From the NCBI GenBank assembly GCA_965217895.1, contig CBDCJV010000002.1, positions 4,544,001 through 4,608,000 of the forward strand: 64,000 nucleotides of DNA, in the 5' to 3' direction. Within the stretch, counting starts at the first letter, position 1, and each line of letters begins with the position of its first letter. The notes beneath the pieces were generated by a model. The model was given only the letters and a program-made list of their open reading frames with translations, made no database searches and was not told the origin of the DNA. Of the stretch, positions 1-7,989 are shown piece by piece. The translations under genes and the position numbers were made by a program. This DNA comes from Waterburya sp. Lineage in GTDB: Bacteria; Cyanobacteriota; Cyanobacteriia; Cyanobacteriales; Xenococcaceae.

Positions 1-2
1 GA

Positions 3-3000
3 GTAAATGGTAACGATCTCGAATCGGTTACTGGCTATAATTTTCTATCTAATTTGCCAGAGTTATTACAAGATAATATTGAAGAAGCTGGGGTAAGTCC
101 TTCATTGACAGCACCTTTATTAGCAGAATCGGCAGAATTATCCACAATTGAGATTCCGAATACTACCGTCGGGCATAATAGTATCGCAAAAAATAGCACG
201 ATCAGTGTCAACATCCCATTCAACACCAGTCAAATCAGTCTTGATGAAAATAGCGTTGGTCAAGGTAACGTGTTCTATTCTGGCTCTACGCAAAGTAGCC
301 TTGGTGAAATTAACTCCGTGGAAAGTACACTCCATGATGACAGTATCGTCCATATTGGCTCTGTAAAAGATAGCTCCACGGACAAAAGACTCAGAGAAAT
401 GAGTTTCACTCAAGTCGGCATCGATGAAAATTCCTTCATAAATTTGAGTCCCGCTCAAGTCAGCCCTACTCAAATTAGCTCCAGTGAAGTTGACTTCTTC
501 GAGTTTAGCCCCACTGAGGTAGGCGTTGGTGAAATTGCTCCCACTCAGATTAGCGTTCCTAAAATCAGCCCCACTGAGGTAGGCGTTGGTGAAATTGCTC
601 CCACTCAGATTAGCGTTCCTAAAATCAGCCCGAATAATTCTAATCTCACTAAAATCTCTTTCGCCAGCAGCATATCTCCTGAGCAATTCTTCTCTGTCCA
701 TAATTCAACACCTAAAATTACTAATGTACTCAATAATAGCGCAACAAATATCTGGTCAGATTTACTCCAATCAGAAACACAGCTAGATATTGATTTCCAA
801 ATTACCGACTTACCCAAAGGACAACTAGCGTCAGCTACCATTACTGGCTTTGACGATGCTGGTAAACCCAACGCAGGAACAATCCTCATCGACCATGATG
901 CCAACGGGATCGGCTGGTTTATTGACGAAACACCACTAGATAATTCAGAATTTACTGCTCAAAATACAGACAGTTACCTACTCGCTGCCACCGAGTCTGA
1001 AGCTGATGGTAAGTACGATCTTCTAACTACCGTTCTCCACGAACTGGCTCACCTGTACGGTTTTATAGAAGGGTATTCAGGGTTTGACGATTTTGTGTCT
1101 GGGGAAAGGGAAAAGGTAAAAGGTGAAGGGAAAGAATCTGATACCTTTACCCCTGACCCCTTAACCTTTAACCAAGGCGAAACCTTATCTTTTGATGGCG
1201 AACACCTAGATAAATCCGTTCATCCTTACGATCTATTGAATACCCATCTCGCGCCAGGAATGCGTAAACTACCTTCCGAGCTAGACGTACAAATACTACA
1301 GGCTATTCTGGCTGAGTCAGACGGGGCGACTTTAAGACGGGGCGACGGGGAGAATTTGGAGGCATCTTTAACTTCAGATCCCTTGCTAGCTATCAATAAC
1401 GGCGACTTTGAGATATCTGACACCACTACCGATAGCTTTGCCTGGGATACTCGTGGTGCTAGCGGTATAGAAAACGGTCAAGCAGTACTGACAGAAAATT
1501 CTCCATTCTTAAGTAACTTCACCCAAACCTTTACCGTTCCTGAAGAGGCGAAAACAATTCAGTTTAAGTTAATCGAGACTCAACTAGGAGCGAGTGAATT
1601 AGCACCACCCGATGCTTTTGAGGTGGCTTTACTTGATGCCAACACCAATGAATCTCTAGTAACTGATACTGGCTTAACGGAAACAGATTCTCTACTCAAT
1701 ATCCAGAATGACGGCACGGCATACTTTAGCGATAAGGTAAGAATCGGCGGAGCAACATCGGGAGACATTATCGGACTCGATCGATCCCGCACCGTTACCG
1801 TAGATATCTCCGACCTTACTCCAGGTACAGAAGCCACACTCTACTTCGACCTGCTTGGCTTTGGTGATGTAGATAGCCGCGTGGTAATTGATGATGTACG
1901 CCTATCAGACCAAAATCTCTTACCGCCTACGGTAGTAGACGACACTGCTACGACTACTCAAGGACAATCTACCATTATTGATATCCTTGCCAATGATACA
2001 GACGATGATGGCGCGATCGCAACTGACTCAATTCAAATCGCCACCGAACCTACTAACGGTACAGTAACCGTTAATGATGACGGCACTGTCTCTTATACTC
2101 CAAGCGATCGCTTTGTTGGTACAGACAGCTTTACCTATACAGTCCAAGATAACGATACTCAATCCTCCGAAGCCGCTACGGTTAACATCACGGTAGAAAA
2201 TGCTGCGCCAGAGATTACCGAGGTTCAGATTCCCGATAACATTACTGAAGGAGATGAAGTTACACTGAAGGCGATCGCAACTGATGCAGGTAATGATGAA
2301 TTGACCTACACTTGGGAGTTTGGTGATGGCAGTCAAGCTGAGGGTCAAAGTGTAAATCGCACTTATGCAAACAACGGCACCTATGCAGGTTCGGTTACGG
2401 TAACAGATACCTTTGGCGGTAGCAATACCCAAACCTTTAAAGTAGTGGTTGAAAATGCTGCACCAGTAGTTGATGCAGGAGAAGATCGGACTGTTGATGA
2501 AGGAAGCAGTGTAGCCTTTACTGGCAGCTTTACCGATGCTGGCATCAACGATACCCACACAGTTACCTGGGACTTTGGCGATGGCTCTAATCAATTATCA
2601 ATAAACAATGAACAATTATCAATAGAACATACTTACACTGATGATGGGGAGTATATAGCGACTTATACAGTTACAGATAATGACGGTGCGGTAAGTAGCG
2701 ATGAGCTTACAGTTACCGTAAACAATGTAGCTCCTACCATTACTAATCTTACAGGTGATAGTTCAGTCAAAGAGGGCGATCGCGCCAACTTCTCTGCTTC
2801 TGCTACAGATCCAGGCTCTGACGAGCTATCTTACACTTGGGACTTCGGTGATGGAGAAACTGCTACAGGCACAGACGTTACTCACGCCTTTGCTCAAAAT
2901 GGCAACTATACCGTAACTGCTACAGTCACCGACGATGATGGAGCTTTTACAAATTCTACTCTTGAAGTAGTTGTCAATAATGTCGCTCCAGTAATTGAAA

Positions 3001-4721
3001 GCTTGACTGGTGATACAGAGGTTAATGAGGGCGATGTTGCTAACTTTAGCGCGATCGCCATTGATTCTGGCAACGATGAATTAACCTACAGTTGGGACTT
3101 CGGCGATGATAGCGAGGCTGTAACTGGTCGAGATGTAAATCATACCTTTTTTGATAACGGCGACTATATAGTAACCCTAACTGTTACAGATTCTGATGGA
3201 GCTTCCACTAGTCAAACATTAGATGTGGCAGTAAGTAATATAGCTCCTACTATTACCGAAGCCAGTGGCGATCGCATTATTAATGAAGGCGACACAGCTA
3301 GTTTTACTGCATCTGCGACCGACCCTGGCAATGACACCTTGACCTACACCTGGAATTTAGCTGACGGTACGGAATTAACGGGATCAAATGTATCTCATAC
3401 CTTCATCGAAGATGGGGAATATGATGTCAATCTCATCGTCACCGATGATGATGGTGCGACCGCCACACAGACTCTAACTATCACCGTCAATAACCTTGCT
3501 CCTGTAGTTAATGCAGGAGAAGATCGAGTTGGTGATGAGGGTAGCCCAGTCGCATTCAATGCCAGCTTTAGCGATCCTGGTATAGAAGATACTCATACAA
3601 TTGCCTGGGACTTCGGCGATGGTAATACAGTTACCGACACCTTGGATCCTACTCACGTTTATATCAACAATGGCGAATATGATGTCAGTCTGACTATTAC
3701 TGACGATGAAGGAGCAAGCACCACCAGTACTCTAAAGGTCACGGTAAATAACGTTACCCCGACGATTACATCTTTGACTGGTGATACAGAAATAAATGAA
3801 GGTGATGTGGCGAACTTTAGTGCCGTAGCTACTGACCCAGGAGCCGACGAACTTACATACACTTGGGACTTCGGCGATGGCACTACCCCAATAAACGGTC
3901 AAAACGCTACTTATCAATATCTGCAAGATGGGATATATAATACTACCCTTACCGTCTCAGATTCAGACGGTGCATCTACCAGCCAAACTACTCAAATTAC
4001 GGTCAATAATCTCCCTCCTACCGTCTCAGCTGGCAATAATCAAACGGTATACATCGGCGAAGCCGTCAACTTCAACGGCACCTTTGGCGATCGCGGTTCT
4101 CTCGATACCCACACCGTTACCTGGAACTTTGGTGACAACACCAGCACCAGCGCTACCAACAATCCCACCCATACCTATACGGCAGAGGGAATTTACACGG
4201 TTAATTACAGCGTCAGGGATGACAGGAATGCCAGTAGCAGCGATACCCTACAGCTAACGGTATTGAAGCTACCCACCCTATCGGTCAATGACATCAGCAT
4301 TGTCGAAGGGGATAGTGGCACGGCTAATGCCCTATTTACCGTTAGTCTAAATGAAGCCAGTACCCGTGCCGTGAAGGTTAATTACAGTACGGCTAACGGT
4401 ACGGCTACTGCTGGCTCTGACTATACAGCCACTTCAGGTACGCTGACCTTCAATCCAGGACAAACCAGTCAAACTGTAGCTGTTTCCGTCACAGGCGATC
4501 GCCTAGATGAAATCGATGAAAACTTCCGTCTCAATCTCACCAGTCCAGTTAATGCGACTATCGCCGATAACAGGGGCATGGCGACGATTATCGATAACGA
4601 TCCCGCTCCTAGCTTAACTATTAATGACTCCACTATTACCGAAGGCGACAATGGTACGAGCAATCTCACCTTTACCGTTAACCTCTCTGGGGCTAGTGGT
4701 AAAACCGTTACGGCTAATTAA
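3..4721 (+). CDS. Giant secreted/surface multidomain protein, 5'-partial and 3'-truncated by IS630: end of a DNA/RNA non-specific endonuclease-like domain, HExxH motif, cadherin-like domain, 8 PKD domains, Calx-beta
   Basis: Frame is open from base 3 (VNGNDLESVTGYNFLSNLPELLQDNIE, like the NucA-type C-terminus). It contains TTVLHELAHLYG, PPTVVDDTATT...DILANDTDDDG, eight W(D/E/N)FGD-type PKD motifs and Calx-beta (VNYSTANGTATAGSDY). The stop TAA is created by the IS630 end at 4719-4721. Confidence 0.9.
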   Translation, partial: VNGNDLESVTGYNFLSNLPELLQDNIEEAGVSPSLTAPLLAESAELSTIEIPNTTVGHNSIAKNSTISVNIPFNTSQISLDENSVGQGNVFYSGSTQSSLGEINSVESTLHDDSIVHIGSVKDSSTDKRLREMSFTQVGIDENSFINLSPAQVSPTQISSSEVDFFEFSPTEVGVGEIAPTQISVPKISPTEVGVGEIAPTQISVPKISPNNSNLTKISFASSISPEQFFSVHNSTPKITNVLNNSATNIWSDLLQSETQLDIDFQITDLPKGQLASATITGFDDAGKPNAGTILIDHDANGIGWFIDETPLDNSEFTAQNTDSYLLAATESEADGKYDLLTTVLHELAHLYGFIEGYSGFDDFVSGEREKVKGEGKESDTFTPDPLTFNQGETLSFDGEHLDKSVHPYDLLNTHLAPGMRKLPSELDVQILQAILAESDGATLRRGDGENLEASLTSDPLLAINNGDFEISDTTTDSFAWDTRGASGIENGQAVLTENSPFLSNFTQTFTVPEEAKTIQFKLIETQLGASELAPPDAFEVALLDANTNESLVTDTGLTETDSLLNIQNDGTAYFSDKVRIGGATSGDIIGLDRSRTVTVDISDLTPGTEATLYFDLLGFGDVDSRVVIDDVRLSDQNLLPPTVVDDTATTTQGQSTIIDILANDTDDDGAIATDSIQIATEPTNGTVTVNDDGTVSYTPSDRFVGTDSFTYTVQDNDTQSSEAATVNITVENAAPEITEVQIPDNITEGDEVTLKAIATDAGNDELTYTWEFGDGSQAEGQSVNRTYANNGTYAGSVTVTDTFGGSNTQTFKVVVENAAPVVDAGEDRTVDEGSSVAFTGSFTDAGINDTHTVTWDFGDGSNQLSINNEQLSIEHTYTDDGEYIATYTVTDNDGAVSSDELTVTVNNVAPTITNLTGDSSVKEGDRANFSASATDPGSDELSYTWDFGDGETATGTDVTHAFAQNGNYTVTATVTDDDGAFTNSTLEVVVNNVAPVIESLTGDTEVNEGDVANFSAIAIDSGNDELTYSWDFGDDSEAVTGRDVNHTFFDNGDYIVTLTVTDSDGASTSQTLDVAVSNIAPTITEASGDRIINEGDTASFTASATDPGNDTLTYTWNLADGTELTGSNVSHTFIEDGEYDVNLIVTDDDGATATQTLTITVNNLAPVVNAGEDRVGDEGSPVAFNASFSDPGIEDTHTIAWDFGDGNTVTDTLDPTHVYINNGEYDVSLTITDDEGASTTSTLKVTVNNVTPTITSLTGDTEINEGDVANFSAVATDPGADELTYTWDFGDGTTPINGQNATYQYLQDGIYNTTLTVSDSDGASTSQTTQITVNNLPPTVSAGNNQTVYIGEAVNFNGTFGDRGSLDTHTVTWNFGDNTSTSATNNPTHTYTAEGIYTVNYSVRDDRNASSSDTLQLTVLKLPTLSVNDISIVEGDSGTANALFTVSLNEASTRAVKVNYSTANGTATAGSDYTATSGTLTFNPGQTSQTVAVSVTGDRLDEIDENFRLNLTSPVNATIADNRGMATIIDNDPAPSLTINDSTITEGDNGTSNLTFTVNLSGASGKTVTAN
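138..701 (-). CDS. Pentapeptide repeat protein nested antisense within the giant gene
   Basis: Typical cyanobacterial N-cap MDREELLRRYAAGERDF, A(D/N)LSG-type pentapeptide repeats, typical C-terminus AIFCDTIMPDGSIRN. ATG start with AGGTG a few bases upstream. Confidence 0.85.
   Translation of the reverse strand: MDREELLRRYAAGERDFSEIRIIRADFRNANLSGSNFTNAYLSGADFRNANLSGSNFTNAYLSGAKLEEVNFTGANLSRADLSGTQIYEGIFIDADLSETHFSESFVRGAIFYRANMDDTVIMECTFHGVNFTKATLRRARIEHVTLTNAIFIKTDLTGVEWDVDTDRAIFCDTIMPDGSIRNLNCG
507..631. repeat. Exact 60-bp tandem duplication
   Basis: 507-566 is identical to 567-626, followed by a further AGCCC. Confidence 0.95.
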
Positions 4722-5815
4722 GTGGTCAAGCAAAATTAATTACACTGGTAAATAGAAAGTCAAAACGAGAGTGAAAAGAGTGCATTTAGAGGGAAAACTG
4801 AGTTCAGAAACAGTCAAAATATTATGGCGATTGTATCGTCAACACCGCGATTAGAGAGGCTTTCTGACCGAAAGCCTCTCTCGCGGCCAAAGTAAAAACT
4901 ATCAAGTAAGAGCTAGAGCGCACTGTATATTGCTGATCGACTCAAGATACGAGCTGGAAGAACTAATTGAAATCTTTGGAGTTAGCCGAAAAACAATATA
5001 CAACTGGAAAAATAACTGGTCAAAGTACAAATTAGTAGGTTTGTATAATCGGCTTGGAAGAGGAAGAAAAGAAATTTTTAGTACGCCACAAAAACAGCAG
5101 ATTAAAAAGTGGGTTACACAAAATCCGAAAAACCTTAAGCAGGTAATTGAAAAAATCAGAGAAGAATGGGGAATAGTTGCTAGCAAAGACACAGTTAAAA
5201 GAATTCTAAAATGTCTGGCAATGAAATGGAAGAGAGTGAGAAAAGTAACCAATGGGCAACCAGACAAAAAGATGTACGAAGTCAAAAAGCAAATTCTCAA
5301 AGCTTTACAAAGGTTATCACAGCAGGGAAGTATAGATTTAAGCTATTTGGACGAAACAGGATTCTGTCTCACTCCTTATGTTCCCTACGCTTGGCAAGAA
5401 ACAAAACAGCAAGTGGGAATAGATAGCAAACAAAGTAAACGACTAAATATTCTAGGTCTTTTAAATAGAGAAAACGAGTTATATTCTTACATTAGTGAAG
5501 TAGTAATTAAATTTTTGGATTTATATGTTCAACAAATCAACAAATCCACGGTAGTAGTTTTAGACAATGCCCCCATTCATCGCTCACTAGCATTTCGGAA
5601 AAAGATAGCACAATGGCGTAAGCAGAAAATGGAAATCTTTTGGTTGCCAACCTATTCTCCTCAACTGAACTTAATAGAAATTTTGTGGCGATTTATGAAA
5701 TATGAATGGATCGAAGCTCAAGCTTACACAAGCTGGAAGCATTTAACTCATCACGTCGAACATATTTTGCGAGATTTCGGCGATCGCTATGTAATTAATT
5801 TTGCATAGGTACTTA
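4719..5815 (+). mobile_element. IS630-family insertion sequence
   Basis: Imperfect terminal inverted repeats TAAGTGGTCAAGCAAAATTAATTACA / TGTAATTAATTTTGCATAGGTACTTA with TA at both ends, enclosing a transposase. Confidence 0.9.
4771..5808 (+). pseudogene. IS630 transposase interrupted by a 48-bp hairpin insertion
   Basis: Motifs LDETGF, LDNAPIH, YSPQLNLIE. The N-terminus from GTG 4771 (..SSETVKILWRLYRQ|SKNYQVRARAHCILL) is broken by an in-frame TAG at 4852 inside the insert. Confidence 0.8.
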
Positions 5816-7989
5816 TAGTAGGTAATCCCTCGACCACGATTAAAATATTTACTGTTTGCCCCTGCATTGAGAGTCTGTACGGGAACGACAAAGCGCCTTC
5901 CATCGGCGGAAGCTACTTCACCACCACCCCAGCTTTGGACGATGGAAATCTTAGTTTGGGCATCAACTAACCGCGCATTAGCTTTGGTGACAGTATCAGG
6001 GCGAAAATAATTTTGTTCCACCCAGGATAAGCGTCCTCTCGTAAGTGCAGGAATTCTTTTTCTCACCAAGGGCGACAGTCCAATATTACAACCTTGAGCA
6101 ATAAGCACCGCACAGATGCTAGTTGAAAGATCTTTAACCTTGGCAAAACTTTCATTAAGATGGGTAAATTCGTCCATAAAACCCGTCTTGGCATTGATTT
6201 CCAACAAGACTTCGGGAAGATCGACTTGAGGTAATAGAGATTCAACTTTATCCCTCAAATTTAGATAACTTTTTGGGTCATCTAACTTATCCAGATTTCT
6301 GATGGTAAGGGTTTCTTTACCCTTGAGGTCTACTTCGATTCTGACTTCTGAGTTTTGAGGTAGGTTTGACGCAGTTTTAGTATAGGCTTGGTTTAACTGC
6401 TCCTGTAATACTTTCAGTTCTGGTTCTGGCTTGGAATTGAGTTCTAAAGTCCGACAGACCGATGTTCGTGCTGATTCCCATGCTTTTCCTTTGAGGAGCT
6501 TGGCACGAGGATTACTCCATCTTTCTCCCTTGGAAACAAACAAGTCGCGACGGCGTAATCCTTCCAATAACTGTCCGAGAACGCAGAAAGTGTATGCCCG
6601 ACGATCAATATCACCATCAGAGTTGACTACCCAAACAGCCCATTTTTTATCAACTATCTTTAAAGGCGCAGCATCCATTTTAGGGTTTCTTTTACCTTCA
6701 ATAGATTGGAGGAATTGCCATGCTTCGAGGGTTTTTTGACCAGCCTGATTACCTTCAAAATCAATGATTGAAAGTAGTTTGGGAAGAAAGCGACGAACCG
6801 AACGCCATTGCTTCAATAACTCGTCATAATAATTATCTTCTGGGGGACGAGCTATATCTTCGACATCAGTAATAGCTGAACTCAACTGTTCTGGAGTTAG
6901 CCGCTGCCAAACCTCTTCTCTAACTTGAGTATCTTCGGTAGCAGGATTAAGAAGAACTCTACAGGCTGTGGCTAGCTGCAACGCAGCAGCGTCTAGATCC
7001 CTGAGAGTTCTTAGGCGGTTTTTTCTCCCATCTGCTTGAGACTTAGCTAAAATATCTTTGACTAATAAATTCAGAACATCAAGAGCATCATCAATGGCGA
7101 TCGCTTCCATAACGTAAGCCCAGGCTACTAAAGTGGCAATTCTTCTTTCGGTAGACATTCGAGCAATCGCTTGCGCTCTGAGGGTAAAAGCAGTTTTAGA
7201 AAGAGCCTTGAAACGAATTGGTGGTATTTTACCTACATCTAATTTGTTGATGCCCAAAGCGCGAACTGTAACTAGACGATTTAAGGCATTAACCAAACTG
7301 GGCGCACTTTTCCTAGTAGGTGATTTTCTTAATTGTTCGAGAGGAGTAGTTCTGACTTTTTCTCCCACCACAATCAATGCTTCTAAATTCTCTATTTGCT
7401 TGGAATTGGGAAGCTTGGAGAGGATTTTCCAAGTGCGGTTAGCTACTCTTTCTCTAACTGCTGATATTAGTCGAGATAATACCGTTACTCCTGGCAGGAA
7501 GATTTTCTGTTCGACTAATCTAGCAGTGGTCAAATCAAACATCATTGAAGGACTTTCTCCACCTATCCAAGCCCTTTGATATAACCAACGAACTAAACGC
7601 CAGTGTCCTGGCTGCTCACTGAAATCACGATAGCCATAATGCCTCTTGATTACTAAGATATGTTCCCAGTGGGTATTGGTACGAAGCAAATATTGTGGCA
7701 AACAACTTATATCCACAATTTCTAGCTGAGATGCCAAATAATCAATCACTCCTTGAGGGACATCAATGGGATCGAGCAAAAACGTTCCTAAAAAGCGAAC
7801 CGTACACAATTGAATAGCAAAACCGAGTCGATTGTAGTCACCACGACGTTTCTGGACTAATTGTTTGGCAGCATCGTCAAGATGAAAGTAATGAGCTAAT
7901 TGAACAGAGGTTGGTTCGCCAACATAACGCCCATAACTATGTTGTTGTTCCGATGTAAGAAACCGAGATGACAAGCCCGAAAAATCCAA
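5816..7989 (-). pseudogene. tnpA: Tn3-family transposase, C-terminally truncated by IS630
   Basis: FLTSEQQHSYGRY, NRLGFAIQLCTVRFLG, WGGGEVASADG..FVVPV. Native sequence ends at GITYY, where the frame runs into the IS630 end. Confidence 0.88.

Follow-up and report, generated by a model that had tools for sequence, protein, structure and literature searches.

Coding Content of the Locus

Analysis of a 64,000-nucleotide (nt) stretch from the cyanobacterium Waterburya sp. (assembly GCA_965217895.1, contig CBDCJV010000002.1; C2:4544001-4608000 of the genome designated G000 in our work), hereafter the window, led to a pentapeptide-repeat protein (PRP) gene nested antisense within a giant gene that bears a nuclease domain. 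The giant multidomain gene occupies positions 3-4721 of the plus strand of the window, where its frame is open for 1572 codons without a stop, and in the genome it opens at C2:4539164 and runs for 3185 codons without an internal stop. It carries Big_2 and, further on, Endonuclease_NS, followed by a 187-codon linker that constitutes the overlap, an HExxH domain, Big_9, eight PKD domains and Calx-beta. The PRP gene is located at 138-701 of the minus strand (ATG at 699-701, stop at 138-140) and encodes a protein of 187 amino acids (aa), its codons being exactly aligned with those of the plus frame, in which no stop is found over the gene. An earlier note on the same DNA had proposed this nesting and had considered the plus frame real on both sides of it; both points are borne out by the nuclease before the overlap, the HELAH motif and PKD domains after it and the 3185 open codons that join them.

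The Endonuclease_NS domain (PF01223), which the earlier note had expected upstream, was found at aa 1345-1633 of the giant open reading frame (ORF) with an E-value of 3.1e-38. In the window the Pfam match stops near base 62, and the C-terminal end of the domain (3-86, plus strand) extends with the conserved tail TGYNFLSNLPELLQDNIEE to base 86. Among 34 aligned nuclease domains, G111 and H112 are invariant, and N134 and E153 are kept in at least 90%. The family match, together with the catalytic His (of RGH), the Mg-binding Asn and the Glu, assigns the domain to the NucA-type (beta-beta-alpha-Me) Endonuclease_NS group. The overlap itself (141-701, plus strand) encodes a 187-residue linker rich in S, P, T, I, V and Q that leads from the nuclease to the HExxH domain and is kept open. 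The latter, a metalloprotease-like domain at 702-1925 of the plus strand with its HELAH motif at 1038-1052, gave a weak, sub-threshold match with the NCBIfam model NF038122 ('metallo_LGF') and no sequence relative in the PDB (best E-value = 0.95).

The Nested Pentapeptide-Repeat Protein

The nested product belongs to the Pfam Pentapeptide family (PF00805, E-value = 1.1e-38; 130.8 bits, cut-off 20.2) and is bounded by an N-cap (MDREELLRRYAAGERDF) and a C-cap (FCDTIMPDGS). It matches pentapeptide-type families only, with no match to NuiA (PF07924). The closest NCBIfam models (HetL, Alr5209, Qnr, MfpA) all score under their cut-offs, and the protein is not a member of the Qnr (68.7 bits, cut-off 240) or MfpA (40.9 bits, cut-off 360) equivalogs. 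The window's own PRP was missing from the matches listed in the protein search. AlphaFold2, given an alignment of 47 relatives, predicted a right-handed quadrilateral beta-helix (pLDDT 96.6, pTM 0.90), for which the best PDB matches returned by Foldseek were Np275/276 (2j8k, TM 0.76), HetL, MfpA, Qnr and AlbG. The 27 D/E against 19 K/R residues counted in the earlier note are correct and correspond to a net charge of -8 and an isoelectric point (pI) of 4.88.

The ATG, the AGGTG and the TATTAT that had been noticed on the minus strand are all present. The Shine-Dalgarno-like AGGTG (709-713) is established 8-12 nt upstream of the start codon, and a promoter-like element comprising CTGACC (754-759), a 15-nt spacer and TATTAT (733-738) lies further upstream. 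The arrangement TTGACC/CTGACC-N15-TATTAT is common to the loci of six relatives (L021, L023, L024, L027, L028, L030). It is not independent evidence of a promoter, because the same DNA encodes the conserved giant-protein motif NNSATNIW. A promoter and terminator scan gave one terminator-like hairpin within the PRP gene (583-570), with a total number of matches as predicted by chance. A perfect 60-bp tandem duplication (507-631, 2.1 copies, 100% match) adds one 20-residue coil (NANLSGSNFTNAYLSGADFR) and keeps both strands in frame, so that this change in beta-helix length is very recent. An inversion switch that would place the PRP in sense orientation was considered and rejected, as stops occur one codon before the ATG and right after the last codon.

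Stop Avoidance and Strand-Specific Selection

Over the PRP ORF, the aligned plus frame contains no stop and the other two plus frames contain 6 and 32. Stops in the aligned antisense frame arise from TTA, CTA and TCA codons, and in the other 24 PRP ORFs of the same genome they occur at 1.4-15.8 per 100 codons (median about 9), from which about 16 would be expected here, against none in 187 codons. Viewed from the other strand, the flanks of the giant ORF contain TTA, CTA or TCA in 94 of 1563 codons (6.0%), which predicts about 11 minus-strand stops over the PRP; none is seen (0/188). The absence of stops in either direction therefore indicates that each frame has been cleared of the other's stops. 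The linker of the giant frame has a 5-residue periodicity of its own, and its single-sequence AlphaFold2 model gave no confident fold (pLDDT 32), a result compatible with disorder and of little weight, as such runs are often poor.

Substitution patterns were studied in four pairs of nested loci by means of the ratio of nonsynonymous to synonymous rates (omega), calculated separately for each strand as the earlier note had suggested. For L023 and L028, both nested and with PRPs 85% identical, differences at PRP codon positions 1, 2 and 3 amount to 16, 12 and 46, with an omega of 0.15 for the PRP frame and 1.14 for the giant frame. The corresponding values are 22, 12 and 46 for G019 and G000 (omega 0.23 and 0.95), 54, 44 and 72 for L025 and L039 (0.39 and 0.66), and 49, 42 and 78 for L022 and L033 (0.23 and 0.85). 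Within the overlap, omega thus ranges over 0.15-0.39 in the PRP frame and over 0.66-1.14 in the giant frame. Over the first 278-292 codons of the HExxH flank past the overlap, the giant frame has an omega of 0.12-0.17 and changes at plus-strand third positions dominate. It follows from this contrast that the constraint changes strand at the border of the overlap. As read from these patterns, the PRP is the selected protein and the giant frame within the overlap is a near-neutral spacer that need only stay open. The possibility that the PRP pattern is a mirror by-product of a plus-strand repeat was rejected on the basis of omega, and also because the caps are shared with free-standing PRPs and free homologues exist whose antisense frame is closed. 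With both frames open beyond chance and the nested one under purifying selection, the two genes are, on sequence grounds, an antisense overlapping gene pair.

Nested Relatives

When 61 genomes were searched using the PRP as query, copies with 81-82% identity emerged in G019 and G020. The copy of G020 is a free-standing gene of 211 aa with no long plus ORF across it, and that of G019 lies inside a 319-codon remnant of the HExxH-side frame. Genome G031 harbors a giant frame of 6632 codons with the same domain order as in G000 and, at the same place, an intact antisense PRP of about 164 aa (Pfam E-value = 8.5e-24) that is 27% identical to the PRP of the window. Residues 1300-2050 of the giant protein were subsequently searched in 401 genomes of the order, 104 of which gave a match, and the 30 best loci (L020-L049, our own locus L020 included) were examined with a hidden Markov model built from six PRPs. 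This led to 33 PRP ORFs in 29 loci, with none in L049.

Nested organization was found for 26 PRP ORFs in 25 of the 30 loci, each aligned antisense to a giant frame with no stop, so that the conserved antisense ORF anticipated by the earlier note in homologous giant genes is present at 24 loci besides our own. The nested ORFs are 129-359 codons long, and the other two plus frames over them contain 1-8 and 9-32 stops; the seven PRP ORFs that are not nested have 1-14 stops in the aligned frame. Between 4.6 and 17.5 minus-strand stops would be expected per nested locus and none is seen in the 26 ORFs, which were chosen as open, the real weight lying in the 25 of 30 loci that have one. The nested loci come from seven GTDB families (f1, f5, f7, f17, f21, f34, f35), and their giant frames reach 10,641 codons in G190 and 10,783 in G384. 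Nesting was also observed in plasmid1 of Tolypothrix tenuis PCC 7101 and in a metagenome-assembled Acaryochloris genome. Nested PRPs are 25-41% identical to that of the window, and all of them begin with a Met close to the 5' end of the ORF and bear the (T)AEELLxRYAAGERDF cap, a TIMPDGS-like end cap being present in most. A Shine-Dalgarno-like 4-mer is located at -18 to -5 in 15 of 22 nested PRP starts, compared with 16% of background positions on the same strand.

Free Loci and the Association with the Nuclease

Four of the 30 loci (L038, L044, L046, L047) match only the nuclease part of the query. Their ORF stops about 10 residues past the tail TGYNFLSxLPExxQxxIE and is followed by a convergent PRP gene without overlap. 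Another 20 nuclease-only matches were taken by query range (about 1-340), and each of these is followed by one or more PRP ORFs. In total, a PRP gene follows the C-terminal nuclease in 24/24 free loci, a number that overstates their independence as close kin are among them (e.g., L054/L055, L063/L064, L046/L047). The nuclease ORF of these loci ends 0-32 aa past the domain, and no HExxH domain is found in any of them. The closest PRP is convergent in 22 of the 24 and co-directional in two (L057, L060), and it lies at most 250 nt from the stop of the nuclease ORF in 19. Tandems of two to four PRPs occur in nine free loci (including L051, L056, L058 and L067), reminiscent of poly-immunity loci. 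Concerning HExxH domains without an upstream nuclease, the PRP is absent in three of four loci (L074, L075, L076) and present at L073. All 47 nuclease-linked PRPs are acidic (median pI 4.58), compared with 14 of the 25 PRP ORFs of G000 (median 6.16).

The earlier note had reasoned that the partner is encoded antisense because the nuclease lies in the middle of the protein, and that the two form an inseparable pair. Neither idea stands: PRP genes are also convergent, without overlap, with C-terminal nucleases, and free forms as well as orphan PRPs exist. An apparent co-divergence of the nuclease and the neighboring PRP (Spearman 0.47, 528 non-independent pairs) was discarded as evidence of co-evolution, being confounded by shared descent.

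Modelled Nuclease-PRP Complex

The complex was folded from the nuclease domain (331 aa, 34-row alignment) and the PRP (47-row alignment). The three runs gave ipSAE values of 0.81, 0.64 and 0.78 (median 0.78), compared with 0.00 for the best of three controls, with a pLDDT of at least 91 for the partners and at least 69% of contacts shared between runs. On the nuclease, the predicted contacts include N109, R110 and G111 of the NRGH motif, N116, R117, N143-G146, F150, E154 and R157; H112 of the same motif is the catalytic His. On the PRP, contacts recur every 20 residues (23, 43, 63 and so on to 163), corresponding to one face of the beta-helix. We are not aware of any solved structure of a PRP bound to a nuclease from which the model could have learned this interface. 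The modelling that the earlier note called for thus yielded a predicted interface over the active site, and the placement of the PRP over the catalytic NRGH motif supports binding.

Comparison with Known Systems

The PRPs MfpA, Qnr, AlbG and McbG are DNA mimics that protect against agents acting on DNA enzymes. The nested PRP resembles MfpA, Qnr and AlbG in its predicted fold and in being net acidic; unlike it, those proteins act on DNA gyrase, and its scores with the NCBIfam models of Qnr and MfpA are far under the cut-offs. We know of no nuclease-inhibiting PRP, and full-text literature searches, which do not extend to subscription journals, turned up neither a PRP acting as a nuclease inhibitor nor such nesting.

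The toxin transcript of pore-forming colicins runs across the opposite strand of the immunity gene before it reaches coding sequence further downstream. The immunity gene of these colicins is on the opposite strand, and nuclease colicins have co-directional immunity genes (PMC4436062). As in the operons of pore-forming colicins, where the immunity gene has its own promoter, the PRP is oriented against the toxin gene and an own promoter is proposed for it; unlike those operons, in which the antisense stretch is untranslated in the toxin, the toxin frame here continues through all 187 codons. In Anabaena sp. PCC 7120, NuiA is described as a constitutive cytoplasmic inhibitor of the secreted sugar-non-specific nuclease NucA (PMC13522737). 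On that description, our loci share with NucA/NuiA the Endonuclease_NS family with its RGH His, Asn and Glu and the proposed intracellular neutralization of a nuclease not yet exported; they differ in that the partner is a PRP beta-helix, the nuclease is embedded as a domain in a giant protein and the partner gene is convergent or nested. Tox-NucA domains of polymorphic toxins have been paired with Imm36 or SUKH immunity proteins (Zhang et al., 2012; PMC3482391). Like the polymorphic toxins set out there, our loci encode large proteins of many domains, the free homologues ending in a NucA-type nuclease, and have small immunity-like genes alongside, in tandem arrays and also as orphan copies. 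The word 'pentapeptide' does not occur in the text of that paper. Our loci depart from its systems in that the candidate immunity proteins are PRPs encoded convergently and the nuclease of the nested form is internal. YjbI-like PRP genes have been reported directly beside GH-E His-Me finger toxins without any other annotated immunity gene (Jablonska et al., 2017; PMC5714182). These toxins form a different nuclease group from other bacteria (Rhs proteins linked to the type VI secretion system); the genes do not overlap there, and a function is not proposed for the PRPs. In our own loci, trafficking domains were not identified.

Fully nested antisense protein genes are rare in bacteria and often disputed. 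The embedding of a PRP gene in a giant gene has unusually clean comparative support, comprising two dozen diverged loci and an omega that switches strand at the borders of the overlap. In Escherichia coli, pop is a long ORF wholly embedded antisense in the annotated gene ompA (PMC7103648). In contrast to pop, the nested ORF here belongs to a large known family, is found in seven GTDB families, has an omega of 0.15-0.39 and possesses free-standing homologues, and the overlapping part of its host frame serves only as a spacer. The present locus provides strong evidence for antisense overlapping genes in bacteria and shows a new form of putative toxin-immunity organization. Annotation pipelines that forbid such overlaps would overlook these genes.

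Proposed Function and Alternative Explanations

Judged from the comparative pattern, the nesting is real, selected and widespread, and the loci likely consist of a toxin-type nuclease with an immunity or inhibitor gene on the opposite strand. With moderate confidence we favor the interpretation that the product of this real nested gene binds the active-site face of the nuclease as an immunity or inhibitor protein, the predicted complex being the basis for the binding mode. The giant proteins would be exported carriers of a toxin-type (Tox-NucA-like) nuclease, and the acidic PRP would be expressed from its own promoter inside the HExxH-coding DNA and would neutralize whatever nuclease folds in the cytoplasm, one face of the beta-helix covering the cleft with NRGH and the Mg site. 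In the free form, a giant protein ends in the NucA-type domain and convergent PRP genes come after it, with arrays and orphans like those of polymorphic toxin loci. The nested form would represent the same convergent arrangement with a toxin frame that does not stop at the immunity gene and continues across its opposite strand to encode additional domains, the read-through stretch serving as a spacer whose sole constraint is the avoidance of stops. Polymorphic toxins are characterized by a C-terminal toxin domain, which is the case in 24/24 free homologues and not in the window, where more than 1500 codons follow, and by an adjacent conserved small immunity-like gene, which is found in 25/30 nested and 24/24 free loci in an orientation, convergent, that is atypical. 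A bolder proposal, which we regard as possible and rather doubtful, is that these PRPs constitute a new DNA-mimic immunity class for the NucA-type toxin domains of giant exoproteins, with nesting as a selected design in which toxin and antidote share DNA and the convergent transcription of the antidote gates the full-length toxin.

Several observations weigh against an inhibitor encoded in this manner. The giant ORF of G000 has no clear start codon and no evident export signal, and it may not be expressed, and the consensus promoter scan called no minus-strand site upstream of the PRP. The contrast of omega between 0.15-0.39 and 0.66-1.14 derives from alignments built on the PRP protein, and some of the 24 free and 25 nested loci are closely related, so that they do not count as independent. 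The ipSAE mark behind the median of 0.78 is reached by 116/157 solved complexes and 2/215 mismatched pairs, a calibration that is rough here as our own alignments were used. In the reverse test, a nuclease was located within 3 kb in only 5/78 loci picked by PRP similarity; PRP sequence alone is therefore no marker of a nuclease-linked function, in a wide family of which a subset would have this job. In the tree of the nuclease domain, the 13 nested and 21 free forms are intermixed and well-supported branches force a minimum of five changes. Conversions or module exchange must therefore have occurred repeatedly, the loss of read-through (nested to free) being presumably the easier direction.

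Other points in this group also argue for an unlikely alternative, in which the PRP is real and selected and does not inhibit the nuclease, acting instead as a chaperone of the giant protein or an adaptor for its export, in partnership with the HExxH domain, or mainly through convergent transcription that throttles the giant mRNA by antisense pairing or polymerase collision. Immunity genes of nuclease toxins are usually co-directional (PMC4436062), and here the orientation is convergent (22/24 free loci). No role is assigned to the PRP genes beside GH-E His-Me finger toxins in PMC5714182. G000 also encodes a NuiA homologue (C2:719112-719495, the only match to PF07924), which could provide another inhibitor of the nuclease. 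The start of the PRP always abuts HExxH-coding DNA in the nested loci, and several loci, in addition to L073, retain the PRP and HExxH without the catalytic part of the nuclease. The short plus ORFs of this kind begin with the nuclease tail, however, and look like 5'-truncated remnants. The alternative is further opposed by the three of four HExxH loci that lack both nuclease and PRP, and by the PRP gene that follows the nuclease in 24/24 loci without any HExxH. A purely RNA-level role would need no purifying selection on the PRP protein, and the modelled interface, which passed its controls, is located on the active site of the nuclease.

It is highly unlikely that the PRP is a captured passenger, unexpressed in nested loci, whose ORF persists through youth or the composition of the linker. 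Such an explanation would suit the lack of a called consensus promoter and the 5-residue periodicity of the giant-frame linker, but nested PRPs of 25-41% identity keep their ORF, Met start, caps and Shine-Dalgarno-like motif, selection acts on the PRP frame in four nested pairs with the giant frame near neutral, and the 4.6-17.5 minus-strand stops expected per locus are absent from all 26 ORFs (picked as open). That two plus genes, or a misassembly, only seem to form one frame across an ordinary PRP gene would be hinted at by the missing start codon and by the transposase ORFs alongside. We consider such an artefact extremely improbable, given 3185 codons without a stop, the purging of stop-causing codons from the PRP, and the continuous frames of G031 (6632 codons), G190 (10,641), G384 (10,783) and the Tolypothrix plasmid, some of them in complete or near-complete genomes. 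Two public sequencing runs of one study, of DNA or unspecified type, also contain 85-90% of the sampled words of window positions 1-2400; they may stem from the source sample and are therefore not independent.

The inhibitor interpretation offers a testable job, namely inhibition of or immunity to Endonuclease_NS, for one group of the numerous and mostly function-less cyanobacterial PRPs. If true, the PRP would join NuiA and EndoGI as a third type of inhibitor fold for these nucleases. The loci also suggest that filamentous cyanobacteria possess a conflict or exoprotein system based on a nuclease, similar to polymorphic toxins and with its immunity genes on the opposite strand.

Remnants, Orphans and Neighboring Genes

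Compared with the 6632-aa relative in G031, the giant ORF of G000 lacks about 1800 N-terminal residues and the C-terminal end. Its stop at 4721 falls inside the Calx-beta array, and its 3' end adjoins transposase ORFs: an IS630-like one at 4930-5808 (plus strand) and a Tn3-like one of 748 aa at 5743-7989 (minus strand), both downstream. The gene looks cut at both ends, although 3185 codons are free of stops, and its PRP may therefore now be an orphan immunity gene.

A second intact PRP of G000 (156 aa, minus strand, C2:2355501-2355968, within the region 2355408-2356010) is similar to the PRP nested in G222. Only two stops interrupt the aligned frame on the other strand, where plus ORFs of 99 and 91 aa are left over, and by this arrangement the second PRP is an orphan left by the decay of a giant gene. 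Free-standing PRPs with no aligned antisense stop over 177-201 codons were observed in five named cyanobacterial records (L080, L084, L088, L096, L116). Where it can be traced, the antisense frame ends 3-207 nt past the gene, L116 being cut by the end of the locus. Such free-standing PRPs without stops are far commoner than the sample median (3.75 stops per 100 codons) predicts, and these five may formerly have been nested.

G000 also harbors a free-standing NucA-like nuclease of 280 aa (C2:4027640-4028479) with a hydrophobic, signal-peptide-like N-terminus and no PRP neighbor; there is no linkage between this gene and that of the NuiA homologue, nor of either with a PRP. At L156 (Cronbergia sp.), an antisense PRP also precedes the nuclease domain. 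Along the giant strand, anti-PRP is followed by the nuclease, about 1 kb and HExxH, which suggests PRPs on both sides or repeated modules. Finally, upstream of the 6632-codon gene of G031 (L019 1-3588; G031:C1:3862001-3865588), a second, broken nuclease piece is accompanied by a PRP-antisense remnant, and the 460-aa ORF between them looks like a TnpB-type transposon protein.

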